The position numbers and the translations under genes are program-made. DNA of 64,000 bases from Candidatus Omnitrophota bacterium (GTDB taxonomy: Bacteria; Omnitrophota; Gorgyraeia; Zapsychrales; Fredricksoniimonadaceae), in contig CAIUQE010000010.1 of assembly GCA_903901225.1 (NCBI GenBank), positions 17,911 through 81,910 of the forward strand, given 5' to 3'. Position 1 is the first letter of the stretch. Every line of letters begins with the position of its first letter. The notes under the pieces are model-generated. The model was not told where the DNA came from and made no database searches. It worked only from the letters and a program-made list of their open reading frames with translations. Positions 5,326-20,692 of the stretch are shown piece by piece.

Positions 5326-7752
5326 ATGAATAGATACATTTGCATCCACGGGCATTTTTACCAGCCGCCGCGCGAGAACCCGTGGCTGGAGGCGGTGGAA
5401 CAGCAGGAATCCGCCCAGCCGTACCACGACTGGAACCAGCGCATCACGGCGGAATGCTACGCCCGCAACGGCGCGTCCCGCGTCCTTGACAGCGACGGGC
5501 GCATCCGCGAGATCGTCAACAATTATTCCAAGATCAGTTTTAATATCGGGCCCACGCTCCTCTCCTGGATGGAGGCGAAGGACCCGGACGCCTACCGGGC
5601 GATCCTTGAGGCGGACCGGCTGAGCCTGGAACGTTTTTCAGGGCACGGCGCGGCCATGGCCCAGGTCTATAACCACATCATCATGCCGCTGGCTTCGACG
5701 CGCGACAAGCGCACCCAGGTCATCTGGGGGATCCGCGACTTTGAACGGCGTTACCGCCGCAGGCCCGAGGGCATGTGGCTCGCCGAGACGGCCGTCGACG
5801 TGGAAAGCCTGGACATCATGGCCGAGCAGGGCATCCTTTTCACCGTGCTGGCGCCCCACCAGGCCCGGCGCGCGAAGAAGCTGACCGAAAAACGCGCCTG
5901 GGACCCGGCGGACGAGGAGAACATCGACCTGCGCCGCCCCTACCTGTGCAAGCTGCCGTCGGGGCGGACCATCGCGGTCTTCTTTTATGACGGGCCGGTC
6001 TCCCGCGCGGTGGCGTTCGAGGGGCTCCTGCATAACGGCGAATCGCTGGCCAACCGCCTTCTGGGGGCGTTCGACCGCCACGGCTCAGGCAACCAGCTGG
6101 TCCATATTGCCACCGATGGGGAATCTTACGGGCATCATCACAAGTTTGGCGACATGGCCCTTGCCTACGCGCTGTATTACCTGGAACAGAACAACCGCGC
6201 GAAGTTGACGGTCTACGGCGAGTACCTGGAAAAGAACCTGCCGCAGTACGAGGTTGAGGTCGTCGAGAACAGTTCCTGGAGCTGCATGCACGGGATCGAG
6301 CGCTGGCGCGACAACTGCGGCTGCAATTCCGGCGGGAAGCCCGGGTGGAACCAGGAATGGCGCGCGCCGCTGCGCAAGGCGCTGGATTTCCTGCGTGACC
6401 GCACGGCCGAGGTCTACGCGCGCGAAATGCAGAGCTTCGTGAAGGACCCCTGGGCCGTGCGCGACGCCTACATCCAGGTGATCCTCGACCGCAGCCGGAC
6501 TAACGTCGAGCGGTTCCTGACGCAGCAGATCGGCAAGGACCTGCCCATGGCGGATAAGAACAGGATATTGCGCTGCCTTGAGATGCAGCGCAACGCGCAG
6601 CTCATGTACACCAGTTGCGGGTGGTTCTTTGACGACATTTCCGGCATCGAGACCATCCAGATCATCAAGTACGCCGCGCGCCTGATCCAGCTTGTGCGGC
6701 GGGTGGCCGATGAGGACCTTGAGCTCGCGTTCCTGGAAATGATCGGCAAGGCTAAAAGCAACGCGCCCGAAGCCAATAACGGGGCGCGGATCTATAAAAT
6801 TTACGTCGAGCCGTCGATCGTCGATATCCTGCGCGTGGGCGCGCATTACGCCATGACCTCGCTGTACGAGGACCTCGGGCCCGAGGCCGGGATGTACTGT
6901 TTCACGGTGCGCCGCAAGGCGTATGAGAAACAGGTCATCGGCAAGATGACGCTCATCGTGGGCCGGGCCGAGATCATGTCCGAGATCACCTGGACGTCGT
7001 TCGACGTTTACTTCGCCGTGCTGCACCTCGGCGACCATAATTTTGTCTGCGGCGTTGATTATTTCAAGGACGCGGCCGTTTTTGAACGGTTGCGCAAGGA
7101 GATCGGCGGGATATTCAACGAGGGGGATGTGCCGCGCTCCATCCAGGCCATCAGCCGGTATTTCGGCGCCAAAAATTATTCCCTGTGGCATCTTTTTCAT
7201 CATGAACAGCAGATGGTCCTGGAGCGTATTTTCCAGAACACCATGAACGAGGTCGAGTCCTCGTTCCGCCATATTTATGAGGACCATTTCGCGCTGATCC
7301 GCATGTTGCACGAGAATCGCATCCCCCTGCCGAAAACGCTGGGGAGCGTGGCGGAATTCGTGTTCAACTGCGACCTTGGCCGCCTCCTGGGCGAGCCGGA
7401 GATATCCGTCGAGAAGCTGCAGCGGCTCGCGCGCGAGATCCGCACCTGGCCGTTCAAGCGCGACAGGGCGGGGCTTGATTTTGTCGTCGCCGCGCGGGTC
7501 AGCGCGATGATGGCGCGCATCGCGGCGCGGCCTGAAGATGTTGCCGCGATCGAGCACGCCACCCAGATCATCCGCCTCTTCCTGGAGTTGCGCCTTGAGG
7601 TCGACCTCTGGAAAGCCCAGAATATCTTTTACGCCGTGGCGCAGAACCTTTACCGTGACCGGCGCGACGAGGTGGAATATGACGCGTTCGCGAAGCGCTG
7701 GGTGACCGCGTTCGAGGCGCTGGCGGAACTCCTGAAAGTGAGGGTGGGTTGA
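5326..7752 (+). CDS. Glycoside hydrolase family 57 protein with long C-terminal extension (DUF3536-like)
   Basis: N-terminus HGHFYQPPRENPWLEAVEQQ is the GH57 signature. ATDGESYGHHHKFGDMALAYAL matches the GH57 catalytic region. 808 aa. Confidence 0.8.
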   Translation: MNRYICIHGHFYQPPRENPWLEAVEQQESAQPYHDWNQRITAECYARNGASRVLDSDGRIREIVNNYSKISFNIGPTLLSWMEAKDPDAYRAILEADRLSLERFSGHGAAMAQVYNHIIMPLASTRDKRTQVIWGIRDFERRYRRRPEGMWLAETAVDVESLDIMAEQGILFTVLAPHQARRAKKLTEKRAWDPADEENIDLRRPYLCKLPSGRTIAVFFYDGPVSRAVAFEGLLHNGESLANRLLGAFDRHGSGNQLVHIATDGESYGHHHKFGDMALAYALYYLEQNNRAKLTVYGEYLEKNLPQYEVEVVENSSWSCMHGIERWRDNCGCNSGGKPGWNQEWRAPLRKALDFLRDRTAEVYAREMQSFVKDPWAVRDAYIQVILDRSRTNVERFLTQQIGKDLPMADKNRILRCLEMQRNAQLMYTSCGWFFDDISGIETIQIIKYAARLIQLVRRVADEDLELAFLEMIGKAKSNAPEANNGARIYKIYVEPSIVDILRVGAHYAMTSLYEDLGPEAGMYCFTVRRKAYEKQVIGKMTLIVGRAEIMSEITWTSFDVYFAVLHLGDHNFVCGVDYFKDAAVFERLRKEIGGIFNEGDVPRSIQAISRYFGAKNYSLWHLFHHEQQMVLERIFQNTMNEVESSFRHIYEDHFALIRMLHENRIPLPKTLGSVAEFVFNCDLGRLLGEPEISVEKLQRLAREIRTWPFKRDRAGLDFVVAARVSAMMARIAARPEDVAAIEHATQIIRLFLELRLEVDLWKAQNIFYAVAQNLYRDRRDEVEYDAFAKRWVTAFEALAELLKVRVG

Positions 7753-9284
7753 TGGCGGCGGGCGTCATTGATATCGGGTCCAATTCCATCAAGCTCCTCA
7801 TCGGCGAACCGGCCGACGGGGGGATCATGATCCTGGAGTCTTTGAAGAACGTCGTGCCGATCGGCCGTTCGACGTTCCTCAAAGGGCAGATCTCGCAGGA
7901 GCCGATCAACCTCACGATCAGCACGCTGGAAAAGTACAAGAAGGTCCTCAAGGAATACAGCGTCACCCAGGTCTTCGTGATCGCCACCACCGCGGTGCGC
8001 GAGGCGGCCAACCGCAATATCTTCATCGATACCGTGCGGCGCAAGACGGGCCTGGAGATCGACGTCCTCAATGTCGGCGACATTGTTTATTACATTGACG
8101 CCTATATTTCCCACAAGCTAAAGGATTCCTACCCGGTGCACAACAAGAACCTCCTGATCGGCGAGATGGGGGCGGGTAGCCTGGACATTTCACTCCTGAA
8201 GAAGGGCTTTACGCTGACCAACATGGGGCTGGCGCTGGGGGCGCTGCGTTTCAAGCAGATCCTCAGCCGCGTGGACGGCAGCCGGGAGGAGCTCGCGGAA
8301 GCGATCCAGGAATACATTGCCAACGAATTCGCCTATTTCCGCAGCCGCCTGCCGCGCGTGCACGTGGACGATATTTTCCTTATCGATGAGAACCAGGAAT
8401 TCCTCAAGGCCATCCTGCCCAACAAGCAGGTGTCGACGAATTTTTTCCAGTTCACGGTGACCGACGTTGAACGCATCATCGGCGAGCTCTCGTCGAAGGG
8501 GCCTGAGGAGATCGCCCGCGCCTATGACCTGCCGCTGGAGAACGCCGACACGCTGTTGCCGTACATGATCATCCTGAAGATGTTCTTTTCCCTGACGCAG
8601 AACCCGCACGTCTATATCCTGGAAACATCGCTCGCGGAGGCGGTGCTGGCCAACAAGGTGATGGGCCTCGAGCTTTCCAAGCGCTACAACAAGTCCAACC
8701 AGCTTCTGGCGGTCGCGCAATCGATCTGCGAGCAGTACAATGTCAACATTGACCATGCCAAGCACGTGGCGCATCTCGCGGGGGTCCTGTTCGCCGGGCT
8801 GGCCGCCCACCTGGGCCTTGAAGAGAACGAGCTGTTGTACCTGTCGCTGGCCGCGTATCTGCACGATATCGGCAAGTTCATCTCCAACCGCTCGCACCAC
8901 AAGCATTCGGAGTACATCATCAATTCCCTGAACCTTTTTCGCCTGACCGACGAGGAGATCAAGATGATCGCCTGCGTGGCGCGCTACCACCGCCGCGGCG
9001 ACCCGTCCAAATCGCACCTTGTCTACAACAGCCTCGCGGAGGACAAGCAGATCGTGGTGCAGAAACTGGCCTCATTGCTGCGCATGGCCAATGCCCTCGA
9101 CCACGCCTACCTGCAGAAGGCGAAAGCCCTCAAGGTCGTGAACCCGGAAAAGGCCGAGATCACCATCGAAGTGTCCACCCGGGAGAATTTTTTGCTGGAG
9201 AAAGCGGAGTTCAACGAGAAAAAAGAGCTGTTCGAGCGCATCACCGGCAACCGCGTTAAACTGAGCATCAACGAGAATTTCTGA
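7749..9284 (+). CDS. ppx: Exopolyphosphatase / guanosine pentaphosphate phosphohydrolase (Ppx/GppA)
   Basis: N-terminal actin-like fold (VIDIGSNSIKLLIGE) and C-terminal HD region (YLHDIGKFISNRSHHKHSEYII). Overlaps the GH57 stop by 4 nt. Confidence 0.85.
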   Translation: MMAAGVIDIGSNSIKLLIGEPADGGIMILESLKNVVPIGRSTFLKGQISQEPINLTISTLEKYKKVLKEYSVTQVFVIATTAVREAANRNIFIDTVRRKTGLEIDVLNVGDIVYYIDAYISHKLKDSYPVHNKNLLIGEMGAGSLDISLLKKGFTLTNMGLALGALRFKQILSRVDGSREELAEAIQEYIANEFAYFRSRLPRVHVDDIFLIDENQEFLKAILPNKQVSTNFFQFTVTDVERIIGELSSKGPEEIARAYDLPLENADTLLPYMIILKMFFSLTQNPHVYILETSLAEAVLANKVMGLELSKRYNKSNQLLAVAQSICEQYNVNIDHAKHVAHLAGVLFAGLAAHLGLEENELLYLSLAAYLHDIGKFISNRSHHKHSEYIINSLNLFRLTDEEIKMIACVARYHRRGDPSKSHLVYNSLAEDKQIVVQKLASLLRMANALDHAYLQKAKALKVVNPEKAEITIEVSTRENFLLEKAEFNEKKELFERITGNRVKLSINENF

Positions 9285-9286
9285 CC

Positions 9287-11314
9287 ATGACCGCAGCCCC
9301 TCTGGAAGACCAGGACAAGTTCATCCATCGCGATCTTAGCTGGCTATTGTTCAACGAGCGCGTCCTTGACGAGTCGCTGGACGCCGACAATCCCTTGCTG
9401 GAACGGGCCCGGTTCGTCGCCATCTTCATGAACAATCTCGATGAGTTCCTGATGGTGCGTTACGCGGCGCTCAAGAGCCTCATCGCGGCGCAGTATAACC
9501 GCAAGGATGTTTACGGGTATTATCCCCAGGACCTCTACCGCGAGGTCCGCACGCGGGTGGAGGAGTTGACGCAAAAGGCCTGCCGCATTTATGACGAGAA
9601 GCTTAAAGTCCAGCTGGCCGCGGAGAAAATACTGCTGCGCCGGGCCGCCGACCTGAACCCGGACCAGCAGAAATTCGTGAAGCGTTATTTTGACGCGACG
9701 CTCTACCCGGTCATTACGCCCATGGCCATTGATCAGGGGCACCCGTTCCCGGTCCTGGCGTCCAAGACCATTTCTTTTGCCGTCCACCTGGAGCGTAAAG
9801 GCGAGATGTACCTCGCGGTCATCCCCGTGCCGGCGAACCTGCCGCGGCTCGTGAAGCTGCCTTCGGCCAAGGACGGGTACGAGTTCATCCTCATTGACGA
9901 GATCCTGCGCGACAACCTGAAGAATTTTTTCCGCGGGCACGAGATCAAGAGTGCCGCGCTGTTCCGCATCATCCGCGACAGCGAACTTTCCGTTGATGAG
10001 GAATTTTCGCCGAATTTGCTCAAGTCCATCGAGGAGGGGGTCCGCAAGCGCCCCCGCGCCAAGGTCGTCACGCTGACCGTCGAAAAAGGCTGCACCGAAG
10101 GTCTGCTTGACGCCTTGACGGAAGCCCTGGCTTTCCCGAAGGAAGAGGTGACCTTCGTCCAGGGAGAAATGGACCTGACGTACCTTTTCCAGCTGGCCGG
10201 CCAGGTGCCCGAGGCGAAGTTGTTCTACCCCGTGCACGTGCCCGCCAAGCCTGTTTATGAGAACATTTTCGACCGCATTCGGGAAAGTGACATGCTCGTG
10301 CACGTCCCTTACCAGTCATTCCAGCCAACGGTAGACCTGATCAAGACAGCAGCGTCGGACCCTGCCGTGCTGGCGATCAAGATGACGCTCTACCGCGCCA
10401 GCGACGATTCCGAGATCGTGTCGGCCCTCAAGCTGGCGGCCAAGAACCGCAAGCAGGTGACCGTCCTGGTGGAGATCAAGGCGCGTTTCGACGAGGAGCG
10501 CAATATCGGCTGGGCCCGCCAGCTCGAGGAGGCCGGCTGCCACGTGATCTACGGCATCGCGGGGATGAAGATCCATTCCAAGATCACGCTCATCGTCCGC
10601 CGCGAAGAGGACCGCACGCGCCGCTACGTCCATCTGTCAACGGGGAATTACAACGAGAACACCGCGAAGGTCTACACGGACGTCGGCTATTTCACCTGCA
10701 ACGATGATTTTGCGCGCGACATATCGGACGTTTTCAACGTCATCACCGGGTATTCGCAGCCCGCGCGCTGGAAACGCGTGATCTCATCGCCCTATGACCT
10801 GCGGGAGTATTTCTTTGAGCTCATCGACAAGGAGATCGCGTTCCAGAAAGAGCACAAGAACGGTTTTATTTTCGCGAAAATGAACTCTCTCGAAGACGTC
10901 AAGATCATCGAGAAGCTCTATGAGGCCTCACGCGCCGGGGTGAAGGTGAGACTCATCGTGCGGGGCATCTGCGTCCTTTTGCCCGGCGTGCCCGGCCTCA
11001 GCGAAACGATCAAGGTCAAGAGCATCGTCGGAAGGTTCCTGGAGCATTCGCGGATATTCCTTTTCAACAACAATACGGACAACCGCGTGTTCCTCTCTTC
11101 GGCGGACTGGATGAGCCGGAATTTCGACCGCCGCATCGAGCTTATGTTCGAGATCTACACGGAAGATTTCAAGGAACGGCTGCGCAACATCCTTGAAGCC
11201 TGCTGGAAGGACAACCAGAAGGCGCGCGTGCTTCAGCCGCAGAAAACTTATTCGTTCGCCAGGGCGTCGAAGGAAAAATTCAGCGTCCAGGACGAGTTCC
11301 TGAAAACACCTTAA
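9287..11314 (+). CDS. ppk: Polyphosphate kinase 1
   Basis: 675 aa. PPK1 N-domain (FMNNLDEFLMVRYAALK), two PLD-like C domains (HSKITLIVRRE, FLEHSRIFLFNN). Confidence 0.9.
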   Translation: MTAAPLEDQDKFIHRDLSWLLFNERVLDESLDADNPLLERARFVAIFMNNLDEFLMVRYAALKSLIAAQYNRKDVYGYYPQDLYREVRTRVEELTQKACRIYDEKLKVQLAAEKILLRRAADLNPDQQKFVKRYFDATLYPVITPMAIDQGHPFPVLASKTISFAVHLERKGEMYLAVIPVPANLPRLVKLPSAKDGYEFILIDEILRDNLKNFFRGHEIKSAALFRIIRDSELSVDEEFSPNLLKSIEEGVRKRPRAKVVTLTVEKGCTEGLLDALTEALAFPKEEVTFVQGEMDLTYLFQLAGQVPEAKLFYPVHVPAKPVYENIFDRIRESDMLVHVPYQSFQPTVDLIKTAASDPAVLAIKMTLYRASDDSEIVSALKLAAKNRKQVTVLVEIKARFDEERNIGWARQLEEAGCHVIYGIAGMKIHSKITLIVRREEDRTRRYVHLSTGNYNENTAKVYTDVGYFTCNDDFARDISDVFNVITGYSQPARWKRVISSPYDLREYFFELIDKEIAFQKEHKNGFIFAKMNSLEDVKIIEKLYEASRAGVKVRLIVRGICVLLPGVPGLSETIKVKSIVGRFLEHSRIFLFNNNTDNRVFLSSADWMSRNFDRRIELMFEIYTEDFKERLRNILEACWKDNQKARVLQPQKTYSFARASKEKFSVQDEFLKTP

Positions 11315-11330
11315 CCCGGGTCATTGCGCC

Positions 11331-12221
11331 ATGCTCGACGAGAAAATATTTTTTTCGCAGGTCATCCAGGGGCACCTCACGGCGGTCCTGGATGAGGAAA
11401 AAGCCGTCTGCCAGCTTGGCGGCGTGAAGGGCAATGTGGAGGCCCTGCACCGCATGCGGGTGGCCCTGCGGCGGCTGAAAAGCGTCCTGTCCGACCTGCG
11501 CGATGTCATGCCCCGGCGCCAGTTGGAAATTCCCATCGAGGGGGTTAAAGCCCTGCTGGGCATCCTGGGCCACGCCCGTGACATGGATACCAAGATCGAG
11601 TTCCTGGGAGCTTTGGCCACCAATCCCCGCGCCAAGGCTTACGCGGCGGGCATCCGCGATATCATCGACGAGTTATCCGAGGACAGGGCCGAGGTCCAGC
11701 CGAAGATCCACAAGGCTTTTGTCCGCGCCCGCCGGGAAAAAGTTTTCCGCGCCATCGAGCGGCTTCATCCCGACCTTGAGACCGCGGAGATCACCCTGGA
11801 CGAATGGGCCAAGAACCGTGTCACGGTCAGGCTGGAGAAAATGATGCGCTGGGAACCCTACGTGAAAAAGCCGCGCCGGGAGCGGGAGCTCCACCAGATG
11901 CGCATCGCGGCCAAGAATTTGCGTTATTGCCTCGAGAACATCGAGCCGCTTTACGGCAGGTCCCTTGCCCCGTACGTGAAGGCGGCGGCGGACGTGCAGG
12001 CGGCCCTGGGGCTTGTCCACAGTTACGACGTGTGGCTTGGCCTTTTGGGGATCCTGCGCGCGAGCGCGGGGCGCAGCAACCGTTTTTCCGAGGCGCTGCG
12101 GTTCCTCCGCCGGGAGTGCGAAACGGCGCGGGCCCAGGCGCATGTCGATTTTGTCGAATTGTGGCAGGCCCAGAAACGCGCCAGGTTGTGGGCCAAACTG
12201 GACCGGTTCGCCGAATCGTGA
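11331..12221 (+). CDS. CHAD domain protein (polyphosphate-associated)
   Basis: Alpha-helical protein with the CHAD hallmark LHRMRVALRRLKSVL and a second LHQMRIAAKNLRYCLE. Lies in the polyP operon. Confidence 0.7.
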   Translation: MLDEKIFFSQVIQGHLTAVLDEEKAVCQLGGVKGNVEALHRMRVALRRLKSVLSDLRDVMPRRQLEIPIEGVKALLGILGHARDMDTKIEFLGALATNPRAKAYAAGIRDIIDELSEDRAEVQPKIHKAFVRARREKVFRAIERLHPDLETAEITLDEWAKNRVTVRLEKMMRWEPYVKKPRRERELHQMRIAAKNLRYCLENIEPLYGRSLAPYVKAAADVQAALGLVHSYDVWLGLLGILRASAGRSNRFSEALRFLRRECETARAQAHVDFVELWQAQKRARLWAKLDRFAES

Positions 12222-13528
12222 AGATCCTCCTGCTGGCTGATATCCATGGCAACCTGCCCGCCTTGCAGGCGGTCCTGGACACCCCGGCCGCGGCGGCGTG
12301 CGCCGAGGCGTGGTGTTTGGGTGACATCGTCGGGTACGGACCTTTTCCAAACGAGTGCGCGGAGCTAGTTGCGCGGAAAATGTCCCGCGTCATCCTGGGC
12401 AACCACGACGTGAAGGTCCTGTCCGCGAAGAAGGTCTCCCGGCATAAGGAGGCGTATAAGACATTTATTTTCGCGTGGACGCGCCGCGTGCTTTCACCCG
12501 CAACCGTGAAATACCTCACGTCATTGCCGGGGGAGTCGCGCCTTAAGCTGGCCGGGCACCGGGTCGTGCTGCTGCACGGCAGTCCTGTGGGCATGGATGA
12601 CGGCTTGTCCATCCATACGCCGGATGAGCGTCTTGCGGCGCTGGCCGTCAAGGCGAGGGCGGACGTTATTCTTGTCGGGCACACGCATGACGCTTTTGTC
12701 CGCCGGGCGGGAGAAAATTATTTTATCAATCCCGGTTCGGTCGGCCGGCCTTTTGACGGGGACGGCGGGGCGTCGTTCGCGGTGCTTGAGATCGGCGCGC
12801 GGGGTGTGCGCGCCACCAGGCACCGGGTGGCGTATGATAACGCGGGTGTTGTCGCGGAAATGAAGCGCCAGGATTTTCCGGATATCCTTGTCAGGGCGTT
12901 CGCGGCCTCGCGCAGCCCCGCGGATACCCTGCCTGAGGGTGTTCGGGGCGATCTTATGGAGGAGGCGCAGAAATTCGGCGCGCGCGCGCGTTATGAAAAG
13001 CCGCACGCGCTGCATGTGGCGCGCCTGGCACTGGAGCTTTTTGACGGGCTGCTTCCCTTGCATGGCTACGCGCCCGGCGGCCGCGAGCGGGCCTTGCTTC
13101 AAGTGGGAGCCTTGTTGCATGATGTTGGCCTTGTGCGTGGCGAGGACGGGCACCATAAATCGTCGCGCGACATGATCCTTGAGGACAGGCTTCTGCCGCT
13201 GTCGGACAGAGAGCGCGTGGTGGCTGCCCTGGTCGCGCGTTATCACCGCAAGGCCTTGCCGAAGGATGAGCACAAACATTTCGCCTTTTTGCCTGACCAT
13301 CATAAAGTGATGGTGGAACGCCTGGGCGCTTTCGCACGACTGGCCGACGCGCTGGACCGTTCGCACCGGGGCATGGTCAGGGGGCTTGAGACCAGGATCG
13401 GCAAAAACGCGGTGACGGTGGTGTTGCGCGCGACGGGACCCGTTGACGCCGAACTGGAATGCGGCAGGATCAAAAGCGATCTTTTTGAACGGGCGTATGG
13501 TAAAAAACTTGACCTTGTCAAAGGATGA
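12218..13528 (+). CDS. Fusion protein: calcineurin-like metallophosphoesterase (YfcE/MJ0936 type) + Ppx/GppA C-terminal HD domain
   Basis: GTG start whose GTGA overlaps the CHAD stop. All MPE motifs in order: LADIHGN, GDIVGYGP, GNHD, LLHGSP, VGHTHD. The C-terminal half carries LLHDVGL...HHKSS...RYHRK, like the Ppx/GppA HD region. The track ORF start at 11804 is an upstream extension that overlaps the CHAD gene. Confidence 0.7.
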   Translation: MKILLLADIHGNLPALQAVLDTPAAAACAEAWCLGDIVGYGPFPNECAELVARKMSRVILGNHDVKVLSAKKVSRHKEAYKTFIFAWTRRVLSPATVKYLTSLPGESRLKLAGHRVVLLHGSPVGMDDGLSIHTPDERLAALAVKARADVILVGHTHDAFVRRAGENYFINPGSVGRPFDGDGGASFAVLEIGARGVRATRHRVAYDNAGVVAEMKRQDFPDILVRAFAASRSPADTLPEGVRGDLMEEAQKFGARARYEKPHALHVARLALELFDGLLPLHGYAPGGRERALLQVGALLHDVGLVRGEDGHHKSSRDMILEDRLLPLSDRERVVAALVARYHRKALPKDEHKHFAFLPDHHKVMVERLGAFARLADALDRSHRGMVRGLETRIGKNAVTVVLRATGPVDAELECGRIKSDLFERAYGKKLDLVKG

Positions 13529-13532
13529 AATC

Positions 13533-14858
13533 ATGCAGAGCGCTGAAAAATATTTTATCGGTATCGATGTCGGCGGGACCAAGGTTTACGGCGGGCTGGT
13601 GACGCCGGCGGGTGCCGTGGCCGCCCAGCACAAGGAAGCGACGCCGCCCAAGGCGGGGCCCAAAGAGGTCTTGGAGGTGATCGAGAAACTTGTTCGTGAA
13701 CTTTTAAAGGCCGGCGGCGTGCCGTTCAAGTCCGTGATAGGGCTGGGTGTCGCGGTGCCGGGGATCGTGGATAACACGGGGCGGGTGGTGGTGACGCCCA
13801 ACATCGGTTTGAGCGGCATGGACCTCAAAAAGGTCCTGGAGAAGAAATACAAGGTCCGCGTGGTGGTCGGTAACGACGTCAATTTTGGCGTCATGGGTGA
13901 GAAATGGCTGGGCGCCGGACGCAAGGCCCAGAATATCATTGGGATCTTTCCGGGCACGGGTGTGGGGGGCGGGGTGATCGTCAAGGGCGATTTTGTGACC
14001 GGACACCAGGGCGCGGCTGCCGAGTTGGGGCACATGTGCGTTGACCCGAAGGGGCCGCTGTGCACGTGCGGCAACGCGGGCTGCCTTGAAGCTGTGGTCG
14101 GCCGTTGGGCCATCGAGCGCGACATTCGCGCGGCGGTCAGGAAGGGCGAAAAATCCATCATCACGGACCTTTCCGGCCAGAAATTCACGCAGATCAAGAG
14201 CGGCACCATTGCCAAAGCCCTTAAAGCCAAAGACCCTGTGGTGACGCGCATTGTGGCGCATGCCGCGGAAACCCTGGCGGCGGCCTGCGTGTCGCTCAAT
14301 CATGTGTTCAACACCGAGGTCTTTATTTTTGGCGGCGGGATGATCGAAGCGTGCGGGGATTTTTTCCTGCCGCGTATTGAAAAGGCGCTTAAAAAAGATC
14401 CGTTCTTTAAGGACTTGCAGACCCCTAAAGTGCTTGTTGCCAAGCTGGGGGATGACGCGGGCATGCTCGGCGCTGTGGCGGCGGTGCGCCAGGGCCTTGA
14501 CCTTAAGGCTATCACAGGCGCGTATTACCCCAAGTTGCGCCTGCTGGCTTCGGGGAAAGTGGCTGTCAACGCCACGCTTATTGAAAAGCCTTTTTACGTC
14601 CGTGCCGACGGCAAGCTCAAGGAACCGGATGAATTCGTTCCGCCGCACATCACCAGCGACCTTGTCGAAGAGTTGACCAAAAAGGGGCCGGACGCGCTTT
14701 TCATCGCGGTCGGCAAGAACAAGCGTCTTACGTTCTCTCCCAAAGCCGCCAGGTACCTGAAAAAGAAGAAGATCGCGGCCTATATCCTGCCGCTCGCCAG
14801 GGTGGTGAAGGCCTACAACCTCAGCGAGGAACGCAAGGCGGTGTTCTTCTATCTTTAA
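13533..14858 (+). CDS. ROK-family glucokinase fused to C-terminal Mth938-like (DUF498) domain. Candidate polyphosphate/ATP glucokinase
   Basis: RBS aaggatga precedes ATG 13533. ROK motifs: IGIDVGGTKV, GAAAELGHMCVDPKGPLCTCGNAGCLE (Zn Cys motif). ~130-aa tail (GPDALFIAVGKNKRL...KKIAAYILPLARVVKAYNLSEERKAV) resembles the Mth938/DUF498 fold. Confidence 0.7.
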   Translation: MQSAEKYFIGIDVGGTKVYGGLVTPAGAVAAQHKEATPPKAGPKEVLEVIEKLVRELLKAGGVPFKSVIGLGVAVPGIVDNTGRVVVTPNIGLSGMDLKKVLEKKYKVRVVVGNDVNFGVMGEKWLGAGRKAQNIIGIFPGTGVGGGVIVKGDFVTGHQGAAAELGHMCVDPKGPLCTCGNAGCLEAVVGRWAIERDIRAAVRKGEKSIITDLSGQKFTQIKSGTIAKALKAKDPVVTRIVAHAAETLAAACVSLNHVFNTEVFIFGGGMIEACGDFFLPRIEKALKKDPFFKDLQTPKVLVAKLGDDAGMLGAVAAVRQGLDLKAITGAYYPKLRLLASGKVAVNATLIEKPFYVRADGKLKEPDEFVPPHITSDLVEELTKKGPDALFIAVGKNKRLTFSPKAARYLKKKKIAAYILPLARVVKAYNLSEERKAVFFYL

Positions 14859-14930: not shown

Positions 14931-15161
14931 ATGGCGCAAGTTACGATCTATATTGACGATGATACTCTGAAAAAGATCGAGAGATCAGCCCGTCAGCACA
15001 AAGATTCCATATCATCCTGGGTGAAAAAACGTTTGAGCGGGTCCCTGGCGGGGGATTGGCCTGCCGGGTATTTTGATCTTTTTGGCTCCCTGCGCGATGA
15101 GGGTTTCGCGCGGCCGCAACAGCCGGACCCCAAGGCGGATCGCGGGCGGGCGGGTTTATGA
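14931..15161 (+). CDS. vapB: VapB-type antitoxin (small DNA-binding protein)
   Basis: 76 aa. Strong RBS. Its stop overlaps the PIN-toxin start (ATGA). Typical TA architecture. Confidence 0.6.
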   Translation: MAQVTIYIDDDTLKKIERSARQHKDSISSWVKKRLSGSLAGDWPAGYFDLFGSLRDEGFARPQQPDPKADRGRAGL

Positions 15162-15568
15162 CGTTCTTTCTGGACACGGATATTTGTATTTTTGCGTTGC
15201 GCGGCGATCACGCGCCGTTGCAGGCCGCTTTTCGCGCGCTTAAGCCCGAGCGTATCAAGGTTCCGAGCATTGTGGCGGCAGAACTTTTTCTGGGGGCCTG
15301 TAAATGCCCGAATTCATTGACCGCGGAAAAGGCTGTTGATGCTTTTCTGGAACCGTTCGAAGTGGTACCTTTTGATCGTGGTGCCGCGGAAGTCTACGCG
15401 CAGCTGCGCTCTGAGCTGGAGTCAAAAGGCACCGTCATAGGCCCCAATGATCTTTTGATCGCGGCAACAACGCTCGCGCATCGCGGTACTCTTGTGACGC
15501 ACAACAAGAAAGAATTTTCCCGTGTTCCGGGCCTTCATCTTCAGGATTGGACGCGGCAGGTTGGTTGA
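15158..15568 (+). CDS. vapC: PIN-domain ribonuclease toxin VapC
   Basis: 136 aa. PIN acidic residues (FLDTDICIF..., ...NDLLIAATTLAH...THNKKEF). Confidence 0.8.
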   Translation: MTFFLDTDICIFALRGDHAPLQAAFRALKPERIKVPSIVAAELFLGACKCPNSLTAEKAVDAFLEPFEVVPFDRGAAEVYAQLRSELESKGTVIGPNDLLIAATTLAHRGTLVTHNKKEFSRVPGLHLQDWTRQVG

Positions 15569-15752
15569 AGGAAATTTTTAGTCTCACCTTGTGGTTTTTC
15601 ATTCCTCAAATAATGTATACTTCACATGGTGGCGTAAATTATAATGCTCTAGAATTGTACTAAATGTCATTGAATGTAATGGAAAGACATTGAAAAGAGA
15701 TCTTGTGTCGGGTATATTTTCGGAATATTTCTACAAACAATATGGGAGAACC

Positions 15753-18700
15753 ATGATGAGTTCACAGCGCACACGTCAGGGATGGGGTTTCAGATTAGTG
15801 GCATTTATCCAGGTGGCTGTATTTATTTCGTCAACGTTCGCGTTGCCCGTCAAGGCCTATGCCCAGAGCGTGATGGAGCTGCCCGCGCCCGGAGCCATGG
15901 TGTCTTTAAGCGAGGCATATGTGCCGGTCATGCTGCGCGCGGTGAAGATCCATCCTGACCAGCCGCTGGTGTTCGATTTTATTGTGGATAGCGGGAATAC
16001 CAGGGCCTCTCAGGCGGAGATCAAAAAGGAAAGCGAGAAACTCGCGAAATATTTCCTGGCGTCGCTCACTATTCCTGAAAAAGATCTGTGGGTCAACCTT
16101 TCTCCTTATGAGCATGACCGTATTGTGCCCGAAGCGTTCGGCCAGACCCAGATGGGGCGCGACCTTCTGGCGCAGGATTATGTGCTCAAGCAGATCTCGG
16201 CATCCCTGATCTATCCTGAAAATGAATTGGGCAAGGAATTCTGGAGCCGTGTTTATGCGCAGGCGCGTGAAAAACTGGGGACGAACGAGATCCCTGCCGG
16301 CACGTTCAATAAAGTGTGGATCATGCCTGACCAGGCCGAGGTGTATGAACTGAATAACACCGCGATCCTTGGCAAGAGCCATTTGAAGGTCATGATGGAT
16401 GAGGACTATGTCGCGCTCAAGGCTAGCGCGGATGATGAGCGGTTCAGCCATACCGTTGGCCAGAATGTGAATGCCGCTAACAAGTTGTCGAGCCAGGTCA
16501 TGCGCCAGATCGTCCTGCCTGAGATTGAGAAAGAAGTGAACACAGGGAAGAACTTTGCGCTGCTGCGCCAGGTCTATCAGGCTTTGATCCTGGCCACATG
16601 GTACAAGAACAACCTTAAGGAAAGTCTGCTGGCGCAGGTGTATTCTGACCAAAACAAGATCGCGGGTGTCGATGCCGCGGACAAAGCGGATAAAGAGAAG
16701 ATCTACGCGCGTTATATCGAGGCGTATAAGCAGGGCGTGTTCAATTACATTAAGGAAGAGACGGACCCCCAGACGCACGAAGCCCTGCCGCGTAAATATT
16801 TTTCAGGTGGAACAGCTTTCAAATATATAGCGGAAAAGGTGAAGACGCGTAAGGTGACGGCGTCGCAACTCCCTCCGGAAGCGAAGCGCGTGGTGGGGGA
16901 TTTCAGCGAGGTTACGGTTGCGGTTGTGAATTCAGATGCTTCGGAGATCAATAAAGGAGCTGTGAATCCTGCATGGGACAAAATGATCGCTGAAAAACGT
17001 ACGCCGACACCTGAAGAAGATGTTACGGCATATGGCAATATCGTTGACGGTTATTGGAAGGGCGAATTAAAAACAACTCCTTATAAATCAATAAATATTC
17101 GTAGTGGTGACGTTAACGACGCGCCGATGATCGATAATATGTCAGATGATGAGGCACTGAGATTGGAGCGTAGAGCGTTGAACTTTTTGAATCAAGGGAA
17201 ATTTGCCGCCAGTCCGCTTATTGCTGGATCAAGCTCGCGCATGAATGTGCGTGAAGCGCCGGAAGATGCCCGGCAGATGGCTGGTGGAAAGGAAATCAAG
17301 TCAAAAGCGGTTGTTCCTGTTGGCATATATGATGGGAAAGTTGTAACGTATCTTGATTATTTCATGAGAGATTTTTCAAGCTTAAAAAGTGCTATTAAAA
17401 AGGCTGCCACTGAGGCAGGTGTTCCGAGTAATGTGGATAACAATGTTGAGTTGTTGTTTTCCAATGATGAATATTTGCCCGAACATGTGCAGTCTATAAG
17501 GGACAATAACGCTTATGGTCTCGGCGAAAATAACATTGAGATCTTTTTGCAGCCGCTGGCGCCGACGATGTTTGCCAGGCCTGCAGACGTTGAGGAGCAA
17601 AAAAAGAATCTTTCGCCAGAAGCCTTTGCGGAAATGATGCGTATCGCTAAGAATGCGGAGAAGGCCTATAACAAGGGAGATCTTAAAGCGCTTATCGTAC
17701 CTGGTGATCGGCAGGCAGGCGGTCATGGTGAATATGATAATCAATTGATTGCAACAGGGAAGCTGGTGGAGTTGTACGACCGAGGCATTGAGGTCATCTC
17801 TGTAAGGAATATCGATAATCTGGGTGGGAGGTTCAACAACCTGTTTTTGAGAACGCTTGGTATGTTCCTTGAAAAGGGACTGGATTTTCAGGCTGAAGTC
17901 ACACGGCGTGCGCCAGGGCAGCGCGGCGGCAACCTCATCGTAAGGACGGACACAGGAAGTAAGGTCTTGATCGAAGATCCGATGTTGAATGCGACAGTGG
18001 ATGCCAATGGTCAGCCTATCGTTACGCCCAGCGCTTCTTATTGGTTGAATAGTGCCGTGGGGCTTCAAACCCTGCACTATGTGATCAGTCTTTTTAAAGA
18101 CCCGCATCAGACCGATGAGTCGTTTATTGAACAATTACGTAACGCAACAACTGAAGAGCGATTGACAATCGCCGCGAAGGGGCGTGCGAGTTCACCGGTA
18201 ATGTTTGATCCAAAACCTTCGAAAGCGCCGGGATTTGAAAAAGCGCTCACAACCAAGGCGGGTGAAACAAATCACTGGCAATTTACTACGGTAGTTCCTG
18301 ATAATATAAAAATGGATGCCGTTGGCGTTAAGGGTATAAGGGATCTGCCTTTGGACAAGTTACTTTCATTGAGCCCGGAAGAGCAGAAAAAAGCTTTGGA
18401 TAAGGTCCGCTTCTTTTCTGCCAAACAATGGGACATGACGCCGGAAAAGCGTGAGGAAGCCCGTAAGGCTTTGGAAGCTGAGAAAGGTCGTCCAGTCTCT
18501 GATCAAGAGCTTAATCCTATCTTAGAAACATACGAAGGGAATAAGCCGTATGTCGCCGCGTTCCTTGATCTTGTATTTAACAGGCCTCCGATAGACAAGA
18601 AGATGTTTGATCCCGCCGAAGATGTTAAAGGCGCGGTGAGCAAGAAAGATAGGTTCCAGCAGGGTGGTATTGACTTCAACCCTGCCAGCCTGAACCTTAA

Positions 18701-18875
18701 GGTCGAGCGCACGGGTAAGGGGATCAGGGTCCAGGTTGATCCGGCGGAGATCCAGCGCATCAAGGCCGAGGGCGTGGCCGGATTCACGCCCGTCATCATC
18801 AATATCGTCCCGGTCAAGAGCATGCTCCCCGCGCTGGGGCTTGCGCCCGCCGAGGTTTCAGGCACCGCGACGTAA
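15753..18875 (+). CDS. Large secreted protein (~1040 aa): N-terminal signal peptide, unknown N-domain, central eukaryotic-type UDPGP-like nucleotidyltransferase domain, unknown C-domain
   Basis: RBS gggagaa precedes ATG 15753. Signal peptide FRLVAFIQVAVFISSTFALPVKAYA|QS. Central region has UDPGP-family motifs LIAGSSSRMN (aligns to LNGGLGTSMG), PGDRQAGGHGE (aligns to PGHGD) and VISVRNIDNLGG (aligns to NIDNLGA). No cysteines. The locus is markedly AT-richer than its flanks. The track ORF starts at TTG 15690. Confidence 0.65.
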   Translation: MMSSQRTRQGWGFRLVAFIQVAVFISSTFALPVKAYAQSVMELPAPGAMVSLSEAYVPVMLRAVKIHPDQPLVFDFIVDSGNTRASQAEIKKESEKLAKYFLASLTIPEKDLWVNLSPYEHDRIVPEAFGQTQMGRDLLAQDYVLKQISASLIYPENELGKEFWSRVYAQAREKLGTNEIPAGTFNKVWIMPDQAEVYELNNTAILGKSHLKVMMDEDYVALKASADDERFSHTVGQNVNAANKLSSQVMRQIVLPEIEKEVNTGKNFALLRQVYQALILATWYKNNLKESLLAQVYSDQNKIAGVDAADKADKEKIYARYIEAYKQGVFNYIKEETDPQTHEALPRKYFSGGTAFKYIAEKVKTRKVTASQLPPEAKRVVGDFSEVTVAVVNSDASEINKGAVNPAWDKMIAEKRTPTPEEDVTAYGNIVDGYWKGELKTTPYKSINIRSGDVNDAPMIDNMSDDEALRLERRALNFLNQGKFAASPLIAGSSSRMNVREAPEDARQMAGGKEIKSKAVVPVGIYDGKVVTYLDYFMRDFSSLKSAIKKAATEAGVPSNVDNNVELLFSNDEYLPEHVQSIRDNNAYGLGENNIEIFLQPLAPTMFARPADVEEQKKNLSPEAFAEMMRIAKNAEKAYNKGDLKALIVPGDRQAGGHGEYDNQLIATGKLVELYDRGIEVISVRNIDNLGGRFNNLFLRTLGMFLEKGLDFQAEVTRRAPGQRGGNLIVRTDTGSKVLIEDPMLNATVDANGQPIVTPSASYWLNSAVGLQTLHYVISLFKDPHQTDESFIEQLRNATTEERLTIAAKGRASSPVMFDPKPSKAPGFEKALTTKAGETNHWQFTTVVPDNIKMDAVGVKGIRDLPLDKLLSLSPEEQKKALDKVRFFSAKQWDMTPEKREEARKALEAEKGRPVSDQELNPILETYEGNKPYVAAFLDLVFNRPPIDKKMFDPAEDVKGAVSKKDRFQQGGIDFNPASLNLKVERTGKGIRVQVDPAEIQRIKAEGVAGFTPVIINIVPVKSMLPALGLAPAEVSGTAT

Positions 18876-18877
18876 GG

Positions 18878-20692
18878 TCATTCCCGTTCAGGCTTCGCCA
18901 AAACCCGCTTTCCGGCGGGTTTTGCTTTTTCAAGCTTTTCAATGTCGGCCAGCGCCTGGGTGATGGCGGGGTCGCCGGGCTTCACCTGCAACTGGGTGGT
19001 GAGGTAGCGCCGGGCGTCGGTATAGGCGCCTTCGCGGTAGGCGATCTTGACCAGCAGGTCAAGGATGTAGGGCTTTTCATCGCACATCGGGTAGAACTGT
19101 TCCAGGACCCGGCGGGCCTCGCTGTAGTTCTCCTGGTTCAGGAGCACCTGGGCCAAAGACTTGTAAGAGAAGATGAAATTGGGCTGCCGGGCGATGGCCG
19201 TTTCGTAGTTGGCCTGCGCCAGCGCCCACTGCCCCGCGTCGCGATAAATGTTGGCCAGGTTGTGGTAAGCCACGGCGTTGGTCGGGTCGAGGTCAATGGC
19301 CTTTTTGTAGGTGGCGGCGGCTTTATTGATAATGCCCGCGTTCGCGTAGGACATGCCCAGGTTATTGATGACGCGGTAACTCGTCGGGGCTGTCACGGCC
19401 AGTTGTTCGTAAAATTTAATGGCCGTGCGCCAGTCCAGGCAGCGCCAGGCGCTCCTCACCCCGAAAATACAGACAACGCCCAGGACGCAGGCGATGAAGA
19501 GGCGGCGCTGTTTTTCCGTGACGGCGCGTTCATGCGCGAGCACCAAAACAATAATGATGATCCCGATCATCGCGCTATAAAGGAAATGTTCGTAGACCAG
19601 CGCGTTGATGATCACAAAAAGATTACAGGTCGGCAGGATGCCCGTGAAGGCCCATAGCACGCCAAAGGCGACGGCGGGGCGTTTTTTCCAGTTGCGCGCG
19701 GCCAATCCCGCCAGCAGGGCGCACAGTGCCATGCCCCAGAGCACATCCGGTTCAACAAATGATGCCGGCGGGGTTACAAGGCGTTCGACGCGCAGGTCAT
19801 AGGGCGTGAAGATGAACCCCGCGTAGAGCGCGATGGCGCGGAAGAAGGCGGCCAGGCGCATGCCGAAATGCGTGGTGAATGGTGTGTCTTCATGATAAAA
19901 GTTGAACGAGTTGTTGAAATTGAGCACCGTGGCGCGCAGGAGGATGTAGCCGCAGGCCATGAGGATGAACGGCCATAACGCGGCAAGGACGCGGCCGGCT
20001 TTTTTGATAAAAGCTTCCTGAGGCGTGAGGAAAAAGAAATCAGCCAGGGCAATGAAGGCCACCAGAAGGATGCCTGTTTCCTTGGACAGGAGCGCCAGCG
20101 GGTACATCAGTAAAGCCAGCCACCAGGCACTGTTGTGGGGCGCGCTGACGCCCGCGCGGCGGAAGCGGGCGTAGAGGAATATCCCGGCCAGGATGAAGAA
20201 TGTCGCCATGGAGTCGCCCAGGCTGTTCGGATAGACGACCGCTTCGGTGTGCGCCGGATGGACCAGCCAGATGAGCGCGGCGAGGATGGCGATGGTCCTG
20301 TTGGCCAGCAGGCTGTTCAGGACATAAAAGAGCATGATCGCCGCCGCCGTGTGCCAGGCGATGGAGACCGCGTGCCAGCCGCACACCCAGTCGGCCCACA
20401 GGTGCCATTCGACCGCGAAAGTCGCTTGCAGCAGGGGGCGCCAGTAGTTGCTCAGCAGGTGGTTGCCCGCGAGCACGTTCTTCGTGAAGAAATTCGGCCA
20501 GTATTTCCAGTCCTGGATGAAGAGGTTCTTGAGGATGAAATCATCATCGTCCCAGAACATCTGGTTGGGCAGGCACAGGCAGTAGGTCAGGATGGCCGCG
20601 GCGATCAGCAGCAGGAGGACATTCTCGTCCCGCGCGAAGATGCTCCTCGCCCTGTTGATGGCTTTGTCCCAAAAGGATGGCGTGTTTGGCAT
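18878..20692 (-). CDS. Polytopic membrane protein with C-terminal TPR repeats (TMTC/PMT-like GT-C glycosyltransferase-type architecture)
   Basis: 604 aa. ~10 predicted TM helices in the N-terminal 400 aa. C-terminal TPRs (YRVINNLGMSYANAG..., AVAYHNLANIYRDAGQWALAQANYETAIARQP...). Confidence 0.65.
   Translation of the reverse strand: MPNTPSFWDKAINRARSIFARDENVLLLLIAAAILTYCLCLPNQMFWDDDDFILKNLFIQDWKYWPNFFTKNVLAGNHLLSNYWRPLLQATFAVEWHLWADWVCGWHAVSIAWHTAAAIMLFYVLNSLLANRTIAILAALIWLVHPAHTEAVVYPNSLGDSMATFFILAGIFLYARFRRAGVSAPHNSAWWLALLMYPLALLSKETGILLVAFIALADFFFLTPQEAFIKKAGRVLAALWPFILMACGYILLRATVLNFNNSFNFYHEDTPFTTHFGMRLAAFFRAIALYAGFIFTPYDLRVERLVTPPASFVEPDVLWGMALCALLAGLAARNWKKRPAVAFGVLWAFTGILPTCNLFVIINALVYEHFLYSAMIGIIIIVLVLAHERAVTEKQRRLFIACVLGVVCIFGVRSAWRCLDWRTAIKFYEQLAVTAPTSYRVINNLGMSYANAGIINKAAATYKKAIDLDPTNAVAYHNLANIYRDAGQWALAQANYETAIARQPNFIFSYKSLAQVLLNQENYSEARRVLEQFYPMCDEKPYILDLLVKIAYREGAYTDARRYLTTQLQVKPGDPAITQALADIEKLEKAKPAGKRVLAKPERE

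Follow-up and report, generated by a model that had tools for sequence, protein, structure and literature searches.

How does a bacterial gene come to place a sugar-nucleotide enzyme of cytoplasmic type behind a Sec signal peptide, and what could such a protein do? The question is raised by a locus in a 64,000-nucleotide stretch of DNA (the window) from a Candidatus Omnitrophota bacterium (GenBank assembly GCA_903901225.1, contig CAIUQE010000010.1, positions 17,911 to 81,910 of the forward strand), for which an original prediction had described an acquired AT-rich island encoding a secreted protein with a divergent UDP-sugar pyrophosphorylase (UDPGP) core between two unrecognisable domains. 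The explanation held here to be probable is that the product is exported and consists of a signal peptide (aa 1-37), an N-module (aa 38-353), an exchangeable cargo (aa 354-970) and a C-module (aa 971-1040), and that the UDPGP cassette was recombined into the slot between the two modules.

An open reading frame (ORF) with a TTG start extends over 15690-18875 of the forward strand (1061 aa). The likelier start, read from the sequence, is one of two ATG codons at 15753 and 15756, before which stands GGGAGA; the public gene call (P0001, 1039 aa) begins at this ATG pair, and residues are numbered here on the 1040-aa product counted from 15753. The predicted gene for a secreted-type protein of about 1040 aa is real (15753-18875, +), and its product indeed contains no cysteine, an absence with P = 2.5e-6 at the 1.23% cysteine frequency of the 27 other proteins of the window.

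The end domains of this protein were expected to be peculiar to the gene, and they are common property of the phylum. A whole-protein homology search, with 8000 candidates scored, returned at least 4282 homologous clusters at E <= 0.001, and the family comprises at least 4,000 clusters at 90% identity. Except for a dozen full-length relatives, the matches are confined to the N-terminal 32-40% of the query, with an identity of 50-85% (50-100% for the N-module of family members), and the source records, where named, are Omnitrophota proteins. The N/C-module carrier family of Omnitrophota was defined operationally in this analysis, and its alignment consists of the query and 119 relatives (A1; P0002-P0120). 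The conserved N-module of the window protein (aa 38-353; 15864..16811, +) carries the motifs LPxPG, WVNLSPYE, TFNKVW, EVNxGKNF and PRKYFSGG, and in 118 of the 120 aligned proteins it terminates in [RK]-x-Y-F-S-G-G near residue 353. The conserved C-module (aa 971-1040 plus the stop codon; 18663..18875, +; GGIDFNP ... PVIINIVPV ... LGL) is a stretch of about 70 aa, opening with GGI[DS][LFM], that closes 107 of the 120, and the middle region between the modules measures from 199 to 1417 aa. All the operational family motifs (LPxPG, WVNLSPYE, TFNKVW, EVNxGKNF, [RK]KYFSGG and the GGID[LF]N C-module) are present in the window protein; no paralogue of either module was found elsewhere in the 64-kb window.

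What stands behind the N-module varies from member to member. Precomputed Pfam annotation places there UDPGP alone, with NDK or with PGM/PMM; other cargos are adenylate kinase, NUDIX, hexokinase, enolase, inositol monophosphatase, malate synthase and aldose epimerase, and further ones are EPSP-synthase-type, LpxC, methyltransferase, radical SAM, macro, receiver, HATPase and helix-turn-helix (HTH) domains. Many family middles have no Pfam match. The N-domain is thus no orphan, being common to thousands of Omnitrophota proteins with other enzymes, and the remote-homology comparison proposed for the end domains was fruitful in that it found these relatives and empty in Pfam, NCBIfam and PDB: the N- and C-modules have no Pfam, NCBIfam or PDB-sequence match, including searches with 20 diverse members at E 10, and their signature motifs were not found in the literature searched. 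The family is apparently very large, restricted to Omnitrophota and undescribed.

A census was taken by scanning reference genomes for DNA encoding the invariant WVNLSPYE, which gave at least 120 stretches; the N-module was confirmed in 118 of the 120 listed, in 122 copies. Among these listed matches, all N-modules come from Omnitrophota/Omnitrophica metagenome-assembled genomes (MAGs) or from MAGs automatically labelled "uncultured Planctomycetales", and one MAG can hold at least six family copies, some in tandem. The sole "Acidoferrales" match was judged a chance DNA match. Tandem pairs, with two family genes within 8 kb, were seen in three MAGs (L016, L036 and L059). An 865-aa ORF of another locus (L119, CAJARJ010000021.1) has a divergent N-module variant, WVNLSPNEQDRIIP, evidence that the family extends beyond members with the exact WVNLSPYE used in the census.

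Models give a partial view of the modules. In the full-length AlphaFold2 model (predicted local distance difference test, pLDDT, 81), the N-module is mixed alpha/beta: several long helices are combined with two short strands and, at 188-215, with a long beta-hairpin. The best conserved of its motifs, WVNLSPYE and PRKYFSGG, fall in low-confidence loops, which in such models is typical of partner-binding or processing sites. Its invariant polar residues (S117, E120, D142, K146, K187, D218, E261, N263, R272 and Q273) suggest a specific binding or catalytic site. The C-module is modelled as beta-beta-alpha-beta (pLDDT 50-82). Between N-module and cargo core lies a linker (16812..17048, +) with a small alpha/beta sub-domain (aa 357-400; pLDDT 86-92 for aa 361-390), kept in close relatives only; its motif G-D-F-S-x-V-T-V-A is common to the window protein, P0003, P0014, P0015, P0016 and P0018, and the identity of the linker and sub-domain to P0003 is only 20-35%. 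Two further sequence features were recorded. An invariant Gly-Gly is found at both module junctions (YFSGG codons 16788-16811; GGID codons 18663-18674). Giant proteins of Omnitrophota are reported to carry, close to their N-termini, C39 peptidases, which cut after Gly-Gly (10.1101/2023.11.21.568195); a connection between the two is speculative. The most enriched motif of the form a.bc in the family middles is D-x-A-M (140 observed vs 10.8 expected, 13-fold), mostly within 70 aa past the N-module and 5-20 aa ahead of GGIDLN (e.g. ...DRAMAAKGGIDLN). It is missing from 44 of 105 proteins, including the window protein and its close relatives, and may be a junction, processing or recognition site. 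On the opposite strand, a 290-aa ORF (15906-16778, -) spans the N-module and similar antisense ORFs occur at 14 other family loci; as a gene it was rejected and judged a shadow of the conserved coding frame.

Was the whole gene acquired, or a part of it? The proposed composition check does mark the region as atypical, the GC content of the gene being 0.501 vs 0.594 for the remaining window (z = -7 against all other 3.1-kb windows). GC content at third codon positions (GC3) divides the gene in three: the signal and N-module have 0.68, the linker and cargo 0.47 and the C-module 0.84, against 0.70-0.85 for the other window genes. An unbiased maximum-likelihood segmentation with two breakpoints put them at codons 347 and 973 (log-likelihood ratio 33), where they coincide with the junctions PRKYFSGG (346-353) and GGID (971-974); by GC3 composition alone the AT-rich cassette comprises codons 348-973 (16794..18671, +). 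The closest relative, P0003, is found in sister assemblies in the same gene order as in the window: PPK, CHAD, metallophosphatase, ROK kinase, the family gene, an opposite-strand 604-aa TPR protein, a 181-aa peptidoglycan-binding protein and ETF. At the protein level, aa 41-340 of the window protein match it with an identity of 90-100%, reaching 100% in 161-340; from about aa 355 onward the figure drops to 10-35%, and exactly at aa 971 it is back at 90-100%. The two cargos are unrelated. A more distant third genome (L121) has a vapB-like gene, a PIN gene, the family gene with a third cargo and a convergent gene. Its DNA is identical to that of the window at 82.5% over the left flank and vapBC, 73.7% over the signal and N-module and 82.6% over the C-module and right flank, and window positions 16811-18735 do not align to it. 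The right flank of the slot is a convergent 604-aa membrane protein with TPR matches in Pfam (18878..20692, -), conserved in the region of 82.6% identity and standing likewise behind P0003. These two comparisons indicate an exchange of cargo between resident modules in a conserved slot. The AT-rich "island" is best read from these alignments as a cargo cassette put between resident, host-like modules by recombination at their junctions. The cargos of P0003, P0014, P0018, P0020 and P0024 have no Pfam match, and that of P0022 has only a sub-threshold match to DUF4317.

The simplest competing account is that of a single AT-rich island acquired horizontally with a vapBC module, carrying a one-off secreted protein in which two orphan domains surround a UDPGP core. 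The low GC of the gene would fit it, and Pfam sees the UDPGP core only. A toxin-antitoxin pair with low GC3 does stand directly upstream: a vapB-like ORF of 76 aa (14931..15161, +; GC3 0.58), which has no Pfam match, overlaps by 4 bp a vapC-type PIN-domain toxin gene of 136 aa (15158..15568, +; Pfam PF01850, E 3e-18; GC3 0.55), and 0.55-0.58 is below the range of the other window genes. The pair is real, yet it is not tied to the acquisition. A 76-aa plus 136-aa pair also precedes the family gene of L121 with its different cargo, and is absent at the P0003 locus, where the spacer from the ROK gene to the family gene is 196 bp; this makes vapBC a separate indel, older than the cargo swap, and not a marker of it. 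The island account is further opposed by the modules themselves, which have host-like GC3, are 90-100% identical to those of a syntenic gene in sister genomes and are common to thousands of paralogues and orthologues. It is now scarcely credible: the cargo is AT-rich as had been claimed, and the N- and C-modules around it are not.

The cargo itself (aa 433-950; 17049..18602, +) is a complete, divergent member of the UDPGP superfamily of sugar-1-phosphate nucleotidylyltransferases. Pfam reports PF01704 at 30.8 bits (cutoff 22), a match limited to about 77 residues (aa 677-753 in the 1061-aa translation), and an NCBIfam scan of the whole protein gave no match. The segment common to full-length relatives in a local phmmer comparison is aa 433-950. 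A profile of 11 homologous segments matches solved UGPases at E 6e-10 and also UAP-type enzymes in the upstream loop region, the AlphaFold2 model of the segment has a pLDDT of 85.5 and a predicted template modelling score of 0.89, and fold searches and profiles match the cargo to UAP/UGP/USP over the whole domain, with the three-domain UGP/UAP fold complete. The divergent, eukaryotic-type UDPGP core with an altered glycine-rich loop was therefore recognised correctly, as Pfam, profiles and fold agree, and its extent (about 430-800) was underestimated. Since the fold spans aa 433-950, most of the supposedly unrecognisable C-domain of about 240 aa is the C-terminal part of the UDPGP fold, and its last 70 aa are the second common module.

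The cargo clade is small and separate. In a profile search of 1.84 billion cluster representatives, 78 clusters fell below 1e-30 and 100 below 1e-10, and canonical UGPases surfaced at about 1e-9 over the GHG...NxDN core only. Compared with the known UDPGP enzymes (UGP, UAP1/AGX and USP), the cargo has an identity of only 13-20%, its clade has G-[AS]-S-S-R-M in a by-eye alignment where the known enzymes have the loop G-x-G-T-x-M, and, unlike them, the clade is mostly embedded in long, cysteine-free, signal-bearing proteins; its strongest matches lie mostly inside proteins of 1-6 thousand amino acids. A few relatives stand free: they have about 460-520 aa and no signal peptide, come from contigs as long as 2.17 Mb and bear no annotation beyond "hypothetical protein". 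These free-standing relatives contain cysteines; they are rare and unannotated rather than ubiquitous.

Across 11 fused and 6 free-standing members, 42 residues are invariant. They include A491, G492, R496 and M497 of the nucleotide loop, S517, K518, A519, Q600, G657, H658 and G659, and also N686, D688, N689, E715, R719, G725, G726, E741, N766, K821, E838, N840 and W842. For the nucleotide-binding loop, the signature of UDPGP enzymes is taken here to be L-x2-G-x-G-T-x-M-x4-P-K (AGX1/UGP); L-I-A-G-S-S-S-R-M aligns by eye without gaps to L-x2-G-x-G-T-x-M, with L, G, R and M retained and S-S for G-T. The loop lysine seems to be displaced by an insertion of about 14 aa, with the invariant S-K-A taking the place of P-K. 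In P0006-8 this cargo has PGM/PMM as its fusion partner, in P0002, P0004 and P0019 it has NDK, and the free-standing P0145 is translationally coupled to a PGM/PMM gene by a 4-bp overlap (L123). These fusions and the operon support a genuine sugar-1-phosphate nucleotidylyltransferase, and the cargo is probably a complete and active, if divergent, enzyme of this kind. Could it instead be a non-catalytic surface protein, the enzyme-like cargos serving as binding or scaffold domains or as variable antigens, and the swaps as surface variation? A cargo hypervariable at a fixed slot, an altered glycine-rich loop and the lack of substrates outside cells would all suit such a protein. The exported cargo, however, retains 42 of the 77 positions invariant among free-standing enzymes, including motif residues lining the UGP/UAP active site, and the fusion partners make up coherent pathways (PGM with the UDPGP-like domain, the UDPGP-like domain with NDK). 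A non-catalytic role appears highly improbable.

Is the protein exported? The claim of a Sec signal has stood up, both in the window protein and in the statistics of the family. The N-terminus, MMSSQRTRQGWGFRLVAFIQVAVFISSTFALPVKAYA|QS, has a positive n-region, an uncharged hydrophobic core of about 19 aa, a proline at -6 and an A-x-A, with the site P-V-K-A-Y-A|Q. This Sec-type signal peptide (aa 1-37; 15753..15863, +; predicted cleavage A-Y-A|Q) is the only transmembrane-like segment of the protein, and A37 is nearly invariant in the family alignment. Over 108 complete family N-termini, the n-region has a median of 3 K/R, the uncharged core has a median of about 18 aa, and a small-x-small site stands just ahead of LPxPG in 107. 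A Tat motif occurs in 3 and a lipobox in 1 of the 108; a Tat substrate was ruled out, the window protein having no twin-arginine motif, and a lipoprotein was ruled out by the lack of both cysteine and lipobox. Cleavage at A37|Q38 after Sec export would be expected from these features.

The strongest sign of export is the loss of cysteine. Its frequency is 0.046% in the N-modules, 0.035% in the cargo regions and 0.054% in the C-modules of the family, against 1.23% in the other window proteins, and 83 of 105 cargo regions are cysteine-free, whichever enzyme they carry. Fused UDPGP-like cargos have 0.017% cysteine vs 0.59% in their free-standing relatives, and long proteins with this cargo but without the N-module motif are mostly cysteine-poor too. 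Low cysteine is typical of many extracellular proteins. It is also known to characterise proteins that pass through the outer membrane in an unfolded state, as in type V secretion (PMC8151025). A depletion of about 30-fold that spares the free-standing relatives argues for real export, possibly across the outer membrane. At L123 (1-17488, ena:ERZ27248688:k141_187506), a free-standing PGM/PMM (710 aa, 6 cysteines) and P0145 (495 aa, 2 cysteines) are flanked by two giant ORFs that both continue past the ends of the locus (called products of 3647 and 4626 aa, with 0.05% and 0.04% cysteine); the downstream one has a signal-like hydrophobic N-terminus and no N-module at its start. As these giant ORFs are almost cysteine-free, the depletion reaches other long exported proteins of the phylum.

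The same N-terminus could also be an uncleaved anchor, leaving modules and cargo inside the cell, where a membrane-tethered cytoplasmic enzyme would make nucleoside diphosphate (NDP)-sugars for the bacterium's own envelope or glycogen, and the family would form membrane-associated metabolic assemblies. The long hydrophobic core (median 18 aa) and the nature of the cargos, which are cytoplasmic in type, need nucleoside triphosphates (NTPs) and include radical SAM, HTH and receiver domains, speak for this arrangement, as do the ROK sugar kinase, GH57 enzyme and polyphosphate genes upstream in the window; many long Omnitrophota proteins have been read as membrane-anchored with cytoplasmic domains (10.64898/2026.06.07.730766). 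On the other hand, the positive charges ahead of the core and the conserved P-x-[KR]-A-x-A behind it imply an N-in/C-out topology or cleavage, and a cytoplasmic site would not explain why cysteine is depleted 30-fold here and retained in free-standing homologues encoded by the same genomes. A tethered enzyme is accordingly viewed as decidedly unlikely.

If the protein is exported, the precursor would first pass through the inner membrane via Sec, and the signal peptide would be taken off. The shared modules would then give all members a common step after Sec, which might take them across the outer membrane, fix them to the surface or pass them on to another cell; this step or the extracellular milieu would be what purged cysteine from every cargo. 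Finally, the enzyme would form an NDP-sugar from an NTP and a sugar-1-phosphate wherever these substrates are present, most plausibly in or at a host or prey cell, alongside sister proteins with PGM, hexokinase, NDK and adenylate kinase. That the cargo acts in or at a partner cell is no more than tentatively suggested by three considerations: the substrates are cytoplasmic, the cargos resemble a slice of cytoplasmic metabolism, and Omnitrophota are thought to depend on hosts (PMC10066038). The effector-like role proposed originally is in this respect a reasonable idea, with a destination that we infer.

A periplasmic or surface enzyme for the bacterium's own use, acting on glycans of its envelope or coat or on nucleotides and sugars that it scavenges, would account equally for the evidence of export, namely the signal statistics and the cysteine depletion. 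Long signal-bearing proteins with glycosyltransferase, starch synthase, PGM and sugar-kinase domains have been described from the phylum (10.64898/2026.06.07.730766), hinting at an entire extracytoplasmic glycan pathway, and Chlamydia, a relative within the Planctomycetes-Verrucomicrobia-Chlamydiae (PVC) group, uses secreted enzymes to run glycogen metabolism outside the bacterial cytoplasm (PMC4829429, PMC9251005). The Chlamydia case relies on a host-derived compartment, however, and there is no known source of NTP or sugar-1-phosphate in the bacterial periplasm or outside the cell. Own use is for these reasons considered rather unlikely. Going beyond the single protein, it can be proposed, again as a tentative possibility, that the family is a phylum-wide, Sec-dependent delivery platform, in which two orphan modules (about 315 and 70 aa) carry swappable, cysteine-free enzymes of cytoplasmic type into or onto host or prey cells, with the cargo repertoire reshuffled between strains by recombination at the junctions. 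The giant multi-enzyme proteins of the phylum would be an extreme form of this principle.

Several points weigh against an exported carrier with a recombined, enzymatically active cargo. Many family cargos need cytoplasmic substrates or cofactors, as do the NTP-dependent kinases, radical SAM enzymes, HTH regulators and receiver domains. With about 18-19 aa, the hydrophobic core is rather long for a signal that is cleaved and might serve as a membrane anchor, and export and cleavage are read from simple sequence statistics. No outer-membrane partner or secretion gene is conserved beside the family genes at the 120 loci, and fold and function could not be assigned to the N- and C-modules. The departure of the nucleotide loop from the canonical G-x-G-T makes activity and substrate putative. 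As to the cassette, in 34 complete family genes of other genomes (L001-L120) the GC3 of the cargo trails that of the N-module by a mean of 8.5 points, which makes part of the contrast a property of the family, and the 21-point drop of the window gene belongs to the lower tail, 7 of the 34 lying below -15 points; composition alone therefore overstates the foreignness of the cargo, and the swap rests mainly on synteny and identity. In these 34 genes, mean GC3 is 0.50 in each of the N- and C-modules and 0.41 in the cargo, and the gap between modules and cargo may have been left by GC-biased gene conversion between paralogous modules.

The surroundings of the gene add some context. The AT-rich intergenic region ahead of it (15569..15752, +; GC 0.326) carries the ribosome-binding site GGGAGA and presumably the promoter, and a 33-bp segment of it (15608-15640) is 88% identical to L121. 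Further upstream, a run of glycogen and polyphosphate genes (5326-14858, +) contains GH57, Ppx/GppA, polyphosphate kinase, CHAD, a metallophosphatase-Ppx/HD fusion and the ROK sugar kinase, which bears a C-terminal DUF498 extension; these genes may be relevant to sugar-phosphate supply. Only one other long ORF of the window is free of cysteine (58952-60514, -); it has 520 aa, a hydrophobic N-terminus and a GC3 of 0.82, immediately precedes a receiver-domain-like ORF (58017-58955) and does not look related to the family. Around the 120 family loci no conserved neighbour gene was found, the largest "cluster" being the antisense shadow ORF of the N-module. At another locus (L122:3274-14108, GCA_974330525.1), a second long ORF (1204 aa) with no Pfam match comes after the family gene P0014 (1464 aa), and a PilZ gene stands about 2.4 kb upstream of P0014 with two genes between; pilZ genes beside giant genes have been reported in the West-Roberts preprint (10.1101/2023.11.21.568195).

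Why should this family deserve attention? Omnitrophota are widespread, uncultured and ultra-small bacteria suspected to live off other cells. The architecture described here (signal peptide, N-module, exchangeable enzyme, C-module) is simple and testable; the cysteine depletion of about 30-fold relative to free-standing homologues in the same genomes is a hard export signature in the sequence, and the swapping of cargo at a fixed chromosomal slot is seen directly. Additionally, the analysis has delimited a clade of the UDPGP superfamily that stands apart and is uncharacterised, and two large modules for which Pfam has no family. For the giant multi-enzyme proteins of the phylum, which are unexplained, the carrier family provides models of small and tractable size. 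Should the proteins reach another cell, they would form a new kind of effector repertoire, with metabolic enzymes in place of toxins; if delivery is what they serve, this would amount to a "secreted metabolism" comprising sugar activation, nucleotide kinases, glycolysis and more. There is a substantial chance that the gene represents a new principle of delivery.

Known systems share some of these features. TpsA and other type V passengers have, like the window protein, a Sec signal, a conserved N-proximal domain, a variable passenger and low cysteine (PMC8151025; PMC5422565); unlike TpsA, the N-module is modelled as mixed alpha/beta and not as a beta-helix, and there is an extra conserved C-module. 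A TpsA protein was rejected, the N-module having no TPS or haemagglutination-activity match even at E 10 and no TpsB-like gene being adjacent: the immediate neighbours are vapBC and the TPR protein, and no neighbour recurs in the 120 loci. A classical autotransporter, with a C-terminal beta-barrel of about 250-300 aa, was likewise set aside, as the C-module has 70 aa, a beta-beta-alpha-beta model and no Pfam match. Cargos of the type IX secretion system (T9SS) also combine a Sec signal with a conserved C-terminal domain (CTD) of about 70-100 aa on diverse proteins (PMC11285876). T9SS is a Bacteroidota system, its CTD is a 7-strand sandwich whereas the C-module is beta-beta-alpha-beta, and a large N-module is present here besides; with no CTD match of the C-module in Pfam or NCBIfam, a type IX cargo was excluded.

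MARTX and polymorphic toxins surround a modular, strain-variable and recombining effector centre with conserved arms (PMC5218395, PMC6315884), and the arms of the window protein are similarly 90-100% identical between genomes around an unrelated centre. Unlike MARTX, it has no RTX repeats (0 GGxGxD) and no cysteine-protease processing domain, and it bears a Sec-type signal whereas MARTX uses type I secretion without an N-terminal signal; unlike toxins, the family cargos resemble housekeeping enzymes. A MARTX or other RTX substrate of a type I secretion system was rejected on the absence of GGxGxD, a Pfam result giving UDPGP only and the presence of the Sec-type signal.

In phylum and content the window protein resembles the long and giant Omnitrophota multi-enzyme proteins, which have signal peptides or membrane association (10.1101/2023.11.21.568195; 10.64898/2026.06.07.730766) and the same repertoire of PGM, hexokinase, ROK, GT1, radical SAM, methyltransferase, NUDIX, receiver and HATPase domains. 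The UDPGP-like cargo of the window gene is also found inside cysteine-poor proteins of 2-6 thousand amino acids, and the protein as a whole fits the described class of long, signal-bearing, multi-enzyme Omnitrophota proteins. It differs from the giants in having just 1040 aa and a single enzyme, and the N- and C-modules, cysteine depletion and fixed-slot cassette exchange are absent from both preprints, in which the word "cysteine" occurs 0 times.

For function, a parallel is Chlamydia, a PVC bacterium that places sugar and NDP-glucose enzymes (GlgA and others, and the PGM CT295) outside its own cytoplasm, on host-derived substrates (PMC4829429, PMC9251005). The Chlamydia enzymes differ in being type III substrates with no Sec signal or carrier modules, encoded by single-copy housekeeping genes with no paralogous family or cassette exchange. 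By analogy, the secretion of these glycogen and PGM enzymes can be regarded as a functional precedent, within the same superphylum, for the exported sugar-nucleotide enzyme described here.

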